Position numbers and translations under genes: made by a program. From the IMG/VR virus record IMGVR_UViG_2778261504_000024: a stretch of 6,371 nt of DNA. The stretch is one strand, 5' to 3'. This DNA comes from a virus (taxonomy: Duplodnaviria; Heunggongvirae; Uroviricota; Caudoviricetes). Below, one piece after another: positions 2,775 through 3,248 of this stretch (its first letter is position 1; the number at the start of each line of letters is the position of its first letter). A model generated the notes under the pieces. The model worked only from the letters and a program-made list of their open reading frames with translations. It ran no database searches and had not been told where the DNA came from.

Positions 2775-3248
2775 TCATGGTTGTGCATGGCTTACATCCT
2801 CCGGTAATTTTCTTCTGTAACGCGCCTCTGCCACATATTCCGCATAGTCCGACGCAATATTGAGAATATCGCTACCCGTTCCTGAATGTTCGGCGGTTTC
2901 CAGTAAAAAACATGCAGCTTTTACCATGTCAGCAACACATAGCAGCGCAATGTCTGTATCTTCCGGCGCGCCATCAAATTCCTGTTTCAGGGCATTAAAA
3001 CGATCATCACGCATAACCCCCCCCCCATTTTCACAATCAGCAATCAGGATGGCTTTGGCCTCATTCAGTGCCATATCAGCGGTAAGCTGTGCGTAGGCCA
3101 GCGAATGGGGGATTATTGCCCCTGTATACTCCGGCTCTCTGGTAATGTGTTTTTCTGCGGTTGCTGCCGTGTATGAAATATCAATCAGCGCGCGCATCAG
3201 TGTTTTGATGGCTTCGGCGGCTGCGTCCGGACGGGTGTTATTGCACAT
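2775..3248 (-). CDS. Hypothetical acidic protein, 157 aa, containing an in-frame G10 homopolymer
   Basis: ATG at 3248-3246 with G-rich SD (AGGGGGTGAG) upstream. Reasonable codon usage, no recognisable motif. The ten C at 3017-3026 (plus strand) encode N-G-G-G-V, residues 74-78. Confidence 0.6.
   Translation of the reverse strand: MCNNTRPDAAAEAIKTLMRALIDISYTAATAEKHITREPEYTGAIIPHSLAYAQLTADMALNEAKAILIADCENGGGVMRDDRFNALKQEFDGAPEDTDIALLCVADMVKAACFLLETAEHSGTGSDILNIASDYAEYVAEARYRRKLPEDVSHAQP

Follow-up and report, generated by a model that had tools for sequence, protein, structure and literature searches.

The 6,371-nucleotide stretch of viral DNA analyzed here (IMG/VR record IMGVR_UViG_2778261504_000024; below, the window) carries a run of ten G residues within the coding sequence of a 157-amino-acid open reading frame (ORF), orf157. 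We find that this poly-G tract is a hypermutable coding homopolymer and that it is unusual in toggling gene fusion and fission: according to its length, two adjacent small genes (below, the N half and the C half) are read either as one gene, as in the window, or as two. The explanation that we consider probable is that the tract is a slippage hotspot in a G-rich sequence that is both a ribosome-binding site and a Gly linker, and that the toggling between fused and split states is mostly a tolerated, near-neutral by-product.

Length variation of the poly-G tract

Positions 3017 to 3026 of the plus strand are ten successive C residues, which is G10 in the coding strand of orf157. The minus strand reads AAT GGG GGG GGG GTT ATG at this point and encodes N74, G75, G76, G77, V78, and M79. 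A first-pass annotation of this DNA had given this position and strand and had assigned the tract to Gly75 to Gly77, all of which is correct when checked against the window sequence and the 157-amino-acid ORF. No other G/C run in the window is as long as 7 (the second longest is C6), and a G/C run of 10 or more occurs in 1.2% of 5000 dinucleotide-preserving shuffles of the window (P ~0.012). Related island DNA amounting to 0.97 Mb contains 87 G/C runs of at least 8, and 77 of them are the poly-G tract. G10 in orf157 also has the length, ~7 units or more within an ORF, that is expected of a homopolymeric contingency locus.

The G10 allele has been assembled repeatedly. The window DNA is 100% identical, G10 included, to contig NLVD01000010.1 (Escherichia coli assembly GCA_002510325.1), and the Logan assembly of SRR3987538, which has the exact G10 allele, also shows 100% DNA identity to the window. 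The exact 157-amino-acid G10 product is encoded by at least 6 independent public contigs, these two among them, and another of the 6 has kept G10 although it differs from the window by 11 single-nucleotide polymorphisms (SNPs). A one-off sequencing error thus does not account for G10.

Tract length was compared in two samples of relatives. An exact-flank pattern scan of IMG/VR, in which positions -12 to +13 are fixed by the pattern, returned 85 contigs, of which 23 have G7, 34 have G8, 18 have G9, 4 have G10, 2 have G11, and 4 have an interrupted tract (GGGGGTGG in 3 contigs and GGGGGGGGTGG in 1). The junction between the two halves is also found in 269 of 5426 complete E. coli genomes. Sixty of these 269, evenly spaced, contain G7 (29 genomes), G8 (15), G9 (5), G10 (1), G6 (1), G4 (2), or GGCGGGGGCGA with another gene downstream (7). 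A true G11 was read at three loci (L016, L032, and L110), and the G4 copies are a genuine in-frame short tract (TATGGGGTT). Protein matches include GG, GGG, and GGGG forms, and the GGGG form implies G13. The lengths overall are thus G4 to G11 in DNA, with G13 deduced from protein rather than DNA; in the set of 84 copies whose frames are counted below, the distribution is unimodal around 8, and 3-periodicity is absent. Four aligned islands with essentially identical flanks have G10 (the window), G8, G8, and G7. Polymorphism among closely related copies, which is expected of a contingency locus, is present here. The first-pass annotation had proposed that the tract is hypermutable, and on evolutionary time scales this is borne out by the comparison across homologous islands that it had suggested, in which length varies and is often the sole difference between otherwise identical islands. 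It had also named, beside uniform G10 in deep sequencing, replacement of the tract by non-repetitive Gly codons in relatives as evidence against its proposal; distant relatives do have a non-repetitive G-rich replacement, but close relatives keep the length-variable tract.

The tract changes far faster than the flanking sequence. Eleven flank haplotypes (identical over 500 nt) are common to at least two loci, and 6 of these 11 have differing tract lengths. Loci L003 and L086 have no mismatches over 3856 nt and differ solely in having G7 and G8, respectively, while L024 (G10) and L070 (G9) are separated by 8 SNPs in 6.8 kb. The observed lengths require a minimum of 34 changes on a neighbor-joining tree built from 84 flank sequences, compared with a mean of 40 when the labels are shuffled, and tract length therefore has almost no phylogenetic signal. 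In public assemblies, the window's exact N-half allele is found with G8 on 234 contigs, with G9 on 113, and with G11 on 6, and the same N half together with an identical C half is found as a G7 fusion on 9 contigs and as a G10 fusion on 5. The window's exact C-half allele is a gene of its own in ten draft assemblies, of which 4 have G8, 5 have G9, and 1 has G11, and in 7 of the 10 the tract is the only indel.

A sequencing or assembly artifact, in which there would be one true length and the differences would be homopolymer miscalls, had been raised by the first-pass annotation. Homopolymers of 8 or more are error-prone in long-read chemistries and in some short-read chemistries, and the complete genomes do lean shorter than the drafts (G7 in 29 of 60 compared with 23 of 85). 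However, G8 and G9 forms of one allele are each present on more than a hundred contigs, ten drafts with the same C-half allele show three different lengths, and G10 recurs in at least 6 independent assemblies, one of them with 11 SNPs. Clonal sets are internally consistent, lengths from 4 to 11 go well beyond miscalls of ±1, and substitution-locked variants (G4 and GGGGGTGG) represent real sequence evolution at the site. Sequencing error is insufficient as an explanation, and we regard a pure artifact as highly improbable; single records may still be miscalled.

Frame consequences and the ancestral two-gene state

The effect of a length change depends on the ATG that lies 2 bases past the tract, which opens an intact 79-codon ORF with the same stop as orf157. 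With G7, G10, or G13, the upstream frame reads through and gives a fused protein of 154 to 158 amino acids. G8 and G11 take the upstream frame to the TGA at 3007 to 3009, which overlaps the ATG in ATGCGTGA; the N-half product then ends in ...GGG(G)YA, and there are two ORFs. With G6 or G9, the N-terminal protein has a 9-amino-acid alternative tail (...LCVMIVLMP) and stops 19 nt inside the C-half gene, whose ORF is unchanged; the resulting 86-amino-acid form of the N half (stop at 2987 to 2989) is found on 113 contigs. On 40 contigs, the exact 79-amino-acid C-half product has a gene call of its own, and in loci L001 and L002 RefSeq has two coding sequences (CDS) with an 8-nt overlap. In 58 of the 60 sampled complete genomes, RefSeq has one CDS at length 7 or 10 and two CDS otherwise; in the remaining 2, which are the G4 copies, the junction lies under one long ORF annotated as Icd-like. 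Frame offsets of 0, +1, and -1 are seen in 28, 41, and 15 of 84 copies, respectively.

The first-pass annotation had predicted that a ±1 change would truncate the protein and that the tract could be an on/off switch. The length-variable tract that such a switch needs is there, but the off state is not. A +1 change (G11) places a TGA over the ATG of the intact 79-codon ORF, and a -1 change (G9) adds the alternative tail to the N half and leaves the C-half ORF intact. The downstream frames, which that annotation had singled out as worth checking, contain the C-half ORF, open from its own ATG (3012 to 3014), and the out-of-frame lengths give two intact ORFs that match stand-alone homologs. As judged from sequence, the on/off behavior expected of a contingency locus is absent, with the C half keeping its own ATG and a G-rich ribosome-binding site. 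Based on the fact that both ORFs are intact in every state and that the C half has its own start, we conclude that a length change is a matter of fusion versus fission, not of on versus off. The relative dosage of the two halves probably also changes between states.

Two variants at the junction were observed in passing. In L100 (NZ_AP042630.1 1393973-1394845), the N-half gene is followed by an unrelated 72-amino-acid gene (MRNKHDIEDL...) in place of the C half, with the interrupted GGCGGGGGCGA at the tract position and an 11-nt start/stop overlap. L101 (NZ_CP100500.1 1926236-1927149) and protein P0121 represent a fused gene with the short G4 tract (CEYGVM). This G4 fused gene is also joined at its 5' side to a long ORF of ~480 to 540 amino acids that RefSeq calls "Icd-like protein." The long ORF is probably an annotation artifact, as its N-terminal part resembles out-of-frame read-through.

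An exhaustive HMMER search against 50%-identity representatives identified 49 relatives of orf157. Apart from the close E. coli forms, most of these are small separate proteins (the distant ones are ~40 to 70% identical and ~75 amino acids long). One group of ~72 to 86 amino acids matches residues 1 to 78 of the query, and another of ~75 to 79 amino acids matches residues 79 to 155 from its own residue 1; at least 10 representative proteins align their own residue 1 to query residue 79. PHROGs has separate families for the fusion (phrog_2512), the N half (phrog_5146), and the C half (phrog_24341). Distant N-half genes end in GHA or HHA followed by the stop codon and have an 8-nt ATGnnTAA overlap with the next gene. 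Stop/start overlaps in distant relatives are ATGCATAA, ATGCCTAA, and ATGTATGA, and one C-half relative is preceded by an unrelated gene with the same overlap design. At the tract position, two distant N-half relatives have a G-rich Shine-Dalgarno-like sequence, either AGGAGGTGGGG, which is canonical, or CAGGGGGCGC. Since most of the distant relatives are separate genes, two of them with a Shine-Dalgarno-like sequence at the tract position, these comparisons identify the two-gene state as ancestral and the G10 fusion of the window as a minority, derived state.

The position of the tract is also like that of a ribosome-binding site. In translationally coupled gene pairs, a Shine-Dalgarno-like sequence is expected inside the upstream gene, and the poly-G tract ends 2 nt before the ATG, inside the upstream gene. 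The stop/start overlap of such pairs is absent from the window, where G10 reads through, and is present in the G8 and G11 relatives (ATGCGTGA). For G7 to G10, pairing with the 3' end of 16S rRNA is predicted at ~-11 kcal/mol, compared with -11.6 kcal/mol for the canonical AGGAGG in L098. These predictions and the homology point to the tract being the G-rich ribosome-binding site of the downstream gene, set within the Gly-rich tail of the upstream gene and turned homopolymer in the E. coli clade.

We propose the following mechanism. Two small genes, ancestrally separate and putatively translationally coupled, meet exactly at the tract, which encodes the Gly-rich tail of the upstream gene and would also act as the Shine-Dalgarno-like element of the downstream gene. 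Slipped-strand mispairing at replication would add or remove a G and thereby shift the upstream frame relative to the fixed downstream ATG. G7, G10, and G13 would yield a single two-module protein with a Gly linker, which is the state of the window; G8 and G11 would yield the ancestral layout, in which the ATGCGTGA overlap would permit termination-reinitiation; and G6 and G9 would yield the N protein with its 9-residue alternative tail. Both coding modules are intact in all states and, by this mechanism, would be expressed in each.

Programmed recoding makes a different prediction, namely that split alleles yield some fusion protein at a set ratio, either by ribosomal frameshifting (+1 on G8 and -1 on G9) or by RNA polymerase slippage. 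The sequence G GGG GGG matches the X XXY YYZ -1 slippery heptamer, but distant relatives have the non-slippery AGGAGGTGGGG at the tract position. A G-rich Shine-Dalgarno-like sequence, which stimulates frameshifting in prfB and dnaX, is present, and a nucleotide-invariant block reaches 42 nt downstream of the tract. However, the flanking RNA shows no significant structure (minimum free energy, -30.5 kcal/mol compared with a shuffled mean of -29; z = -0.45), and the window has no Rfam matches. Fused and split architectures are both natural, in line with recoding, but the frame relation of the ORFs is not conserved, with 1/3 of the copies in frame and 2/3 divided between +1 and -1. A frameshift site is expected to have both a conserved offset and a downstream stimulatory structure, and this site has neither. 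We consider recoding to be quite improbable.

Selection and the case for neutrality

The ratio of nonsynonymous to synonymous divergence (dN/dS) is 0.26 to 0.39 for the N half and 0.27 to 0.33 for the C half (both overall ~0.25 to 0.39), at a synonymous divergence of ~0.15 to 0.39. Across subsets defined by tract state, dN/dS is 0.24 to 0.52, which indicates purifying selection whatever the tract state. Taken alone, state-specific dN/dS was set aside as uninformative, since substitutions build up far more slowly than the state flips. Both ORFs have their standard length in 81 of 84 loci, and the C half is shortened in the other 3. The N-half allele types (74 and 68 amino acids) and the C-half types (77 and 73 amino acids) are present in all four combinations, a pattern indicating that the halves behave as separate modules, shuffled by recombination at the junction. 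Locked variants persist in both states, as a fused G4 (L101) and as a split GGGGGTGG or GGCGGGGGCGA, and from these variants we conclude that both states are viable in the long term.

Around the tract, a block from -17 to +42 (2975 to 3043) is near-invariant in 67 distinct haplotypes, synonymous third positions included, of which just -12 to +13 was fixed by the search pattern; synonymous divergence elsewhere in both genes is ~0.3. The block is also the joint at which N and C alleles recombine. Its cause may be this recombination joint, constraints on translation initiation, or the overlapping alternative frames.

The orf157 protein has no matches in Pfam, NCBIfam, or PADLOC, and its PHROGs matches are families of unknown function. 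The AlphaFold2 model is all-helical, with a mean predicted local distance difference test score (pLDDT) of 61.8. In this model, the N half is a helical hairpin (H9-37 and H39-73; block-mean pLDDT of 73 to 83 over residues 11 to 60), and the tract region is a low-confidence loop between the hairpin and a second helical module, as would be expected for a linker. A Foldseek search of the model against the PDB gave nothing better than E = 0.29, with generic helical bundles only.

Whether the switching matters to the element is a separate question. Under adaptive phase variation, reversible slippage would switch between fused and separate proteins, or would switch the expression level of the C half and of the coupled replication genes, as a form of bet-hedging toward helper phages or conditions in the host. 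Across the 84 tips, tract length retains hardly any phylogenetic signal, and one allele is found in five length states, but G7 alleles are stable in clonal sets and locked variants have persisted in either state. Copies are found in all three frames, as is the case for known contingency loci, but the proportions are those of the neutral expectation: fused copies are 28 of 84 (33%), which is the share expected without any effect of frame. The uninterrupted G run is kept in most copies despite a synonymous divergence of ~0.3 elsewhere, and a second variable homopolymer (T7/T8/T9) is present in the operon's next small gene. However, both ORFs are intact and translatable in all states, so that a clear off state is absent, and neither protein has a recognized function or phenotype (Pfam, NCBIfam, PADLOC, PHROGs, and Foldseek). 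In the literature on PICI-type satellites (phage-inducible chromosomal islands, described below) and on E. coli prophages, we did not find a variable poly-G or other homopolymer switch described. We consider adaptive phase variation to be rather unlikely.

Instead, the frame classes are near the proportions expected without preference, which suggests that the length variation is mostly tolerated and near-neutral. Several points weigh against this reading of the tract as a near-neutral slippage hotspot. A fast adaptive switch at mutational equilibrium would likewise give fused and split copies in a ratio of 1:2, and the ratio is thus no proof of neutrality. G7 is uniform within clonal sets, which include eight isolates of strain 2020S05-013 and many genomes of 5.3 to 5.8 Mb that look clonal, and short alleles are thus without visible instability on short time scales. 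The instability itself is known from comparison of assemblies, some of which may carry homopolymer errors. The invariant 60-nt block suggests nucleotide-level constraint or recent recombination that the hotspot explanation does not fully cover. Finally, independent initiation at M79 is a prediction from homology and from a ribosome-binding-site-like sequence.

The surrounding island and related systems

The features of the window are listed in Table 1. The window also encodes, on its minus strand, an 83-amino-acid ORF and ssb. The genes icd-like, N half, C half, small ORF, DUF4222, and rep form a tightly overlapping, leftward early/replication operon. The nearest relative in a complete genome is in E. 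coli strain E2 (99.2% identity over 861 nt, window positions 2600 to 3460). The E2 island is ~10 kb, lies between tRNA-Pro and yejO, adjoins the tRNA gene, and runs on into genes for the major capsid protein, head decoration, and terS. Islands with the exact orf157 product run on into a Clp-protease/capsid gene. Such capsid and packaging genes lie outside the window and are known from these relatives, and no tRNA genes were found in the window. A compact island with integrase, AlpA, RepA helicase, SSB, and iterons has the gene content of a PICI. Based on this gene content, and because the relatives' island lies beside tRNA-Pro and continues into capsid/terS or Clp-protease/capsid genes, we identify the element, from sequence, as an E. 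coli PICI-type phage satellite. A megablast search of the window against a phage collection gave zero matches. A scan for the orf157 protein in a genome collection also gave zero relatives, which we attribute to that collection holding one genome per species.

Table 1. Features of the window (strand given relative to the window sequence)
Feature	Position	Strand	Remarks
Iteron cluster	672-875		Directly downstream of RepA helicase gene
RepA-family helicase (AAA_25), island replication protein	873..2288	-	4-nt overlap with DUF4222 gene
DUF4222 gene (orf99 of the first-pass annotation)	2285..2584	-	PF13973, E 3e-23
57-amino-acid ORF, downstream	2615..2788	-	14-nt overlap with orf157 stop; carries T7
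orf157, fused form of two ancestrally separate small genes	2775..3248	-	phrog_2512
C-half ORF, M79-P157 and stop	2775..3014	-	Homologous to stand-alone proteins of ~75-79 amino acids starting at M79; phrog_24341
Near-invariant block	2975..3043	-	-17 to +42 around tract; N/C allele recombination joint
Latent TGA, out of frame here	2987..2989	-	N-half stop with G6 or G9; seen in P0123, L102
Latent TGA, out of frame here	3007..3009	-	N-half stop with G8 or G11; ATGCGTGA start/stop overlap
ATG, 2 bases past tract	3012..3014	-	C-half start in split-state relatives; M79 here; invariant in 33-sequence alignment
Poly-G tract (G10)	3017..3026	-	Encodes G75-G77 and first base of V78; length-variable homopolymer
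N-half module, codons 1-74	3027..3248	-	Homologous to stand-alone proteins of ~72-86 amino acids; phrog_5146
Icd-like protein	3238..3444	-	NF033153, phrog_6196; upstream in operon; 11-nt overlap with orf157 start
YlcI/YnfO-family gene, divergent	3641-3946	+	
AlpA-type regulator	4424-4630	-	PF05930
Tyrosine integrase	5130-6371	-	NF007246

Several further observations were made on the island. On the minus strand, a sigma-70-like match (3551-3579; TTGACG, 17 nt, TAACAT) precedes the Icd-like gene and falls in the divergent region that faces the YlcI/YnfO-family gene. It is likely the promoter of the tract-bearing operon, with the qualification that it is a consensus match and that the number of such matches is no higher than in shuffles. 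Phase variation by way of a promoter spacer was considered and rejected, as no sigma-70-like promoter spans the tract and promoter-like sites are found solely at 3579-3551 and 2698-2669. The region at 672-875 has at least 6 copies of TCCCCACTTT, in both orientations and within longer 19- and 45-nt repeats, and is probably the iteron-type replication origin of the satellite. Islands that share the N and C genes (L092 and L103-L112, compared with the window) differ in their replication module, the exchange lying directly past the DUF4222 gene; the alternatives at the rep position are the RepA/AAA_25 helicase (471 amino acids, as in the window) and a D5_N/DUF5906/Pox_D5 primase-helicase (601 amino acids).

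The next gene of the operon has a homopolymer of its own. The plus strand has A7 at 2642-2648, which is T7 in the 57-amino-acid ORF, and its length varies. T7 is present in the window and in L001, where the NCBI Prokaryotic Genome Annotation Pipeline (PGAP) labels the gene "frameshifted." T8, in L002, L003, L108, and L110, gives a 66-amino-acid ORF that ends just before the DUF4222 start, and T9 in L092 is the sole indel relative to the window over 3.9 kb. Among the 15 counted loci that carry the gene, 8 have T7, 5 have T8, and 2 have T9.

The tract resembles several known systems in part. Like the poly-G/C contingency loci that vary by slippage within coding sequences in Neisseria (pgtA/lgt), Campylobacter, and Bordetella (PMC2193922, PMC5084427, PMC1891110), it is a G run of at least 7 in a coding sequence, its length varies among otherwise identical copies, and each base step shifts the frame. 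Unlike those loci, it is in an E. coli phage satellite, has no off state, since a frameshift regenerates two intact overlapping genes, has frame classes at neutral proportions, and is known here from assemblies. The G8 and G11 copies and the distant relatives resemble coupled overlapping gene pairs (ATGnnTGA/ATGA, with the Shine-Dalgarno sequence in the upstream 3' end), which are common among phage and operon genes. In contrast to such pairs, the upstream frame of the window reads through to give a fusion, and the Shine-Dalgarno element is now a mutable homopolymer. In the cj0031/cj0032 restriction-modification locus of Campylobacter jejuni, a poly-G tract joins two ORFs and the split form is regarded as off. 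Tract length there, as here, sets whether one protein or two are made from adjacent ORFs, but the split form of our tract is ancestral and commoner and has both parts under purifying selection. dnaX, IS3-family orfAB, and lambda G/GT are also overlapping ORFs from which a fusion is made across a slippery run near a Shine-Dalgarno-like sequence; unlike them, our tract has a frame relation that is set by genotype and varies among copies, and a conserved stimulatory structure was not found in its flanking RNA. Finally, as in the PICI-type satellites of Enterobacteria, including capsid-forming PICIs (10.1101/2022.09.14.508007; 10.1101/2025.02.11.637232), the island of the window combines int and alpA with a divergent small regulator, iterons, ssb, and an early operon whose last gene is a helicase/primase rep, and its close relatives adjoin tRNA-Pro and run on into capsid genes and terS. 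This last likeness is one of context only.

That the hotspot is real and widespread is well documented; its switching is so far without evidence of biological importance. Simple-sequence contingency loci are generally considered to be few in E. coli. It is unlikely, in our estimation, that the tract, perhaps together with the T7/T8/T9 run, is a true satellite contingency locus in E. coli that converts a two-subunit module into a single chain and back and retunes the coupling into the replication genes. If it were, satellite populations would be heterogeneous in their response to, or interference with, helper phages. If the switching is adaptive, the tract would be, so far as the literature that we searched shows, the first locus in a PICI to be described as phase variable; if it is neutral, the tract is an ordinary mutational hotspot.

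There are also consequences that do not depend on this choice. Annotation pipelines report one gene, two genes, or a frameshifted gene according to tract length, and because of this, pangenome analysis and satellite typing will distribute a single locus over several gene families, which is already the case in PHROGs. Across a widespread phage-satellite family, the tract changes length about as often as is possible. The site offers, as a naturally occurring series, one pair of proteins in both fused and split versions. With this series, it could be possible to examine how genes fuse and split, how translation is coupled, and how fast homopolymers mutate in a mismatch-repair-proficient host.

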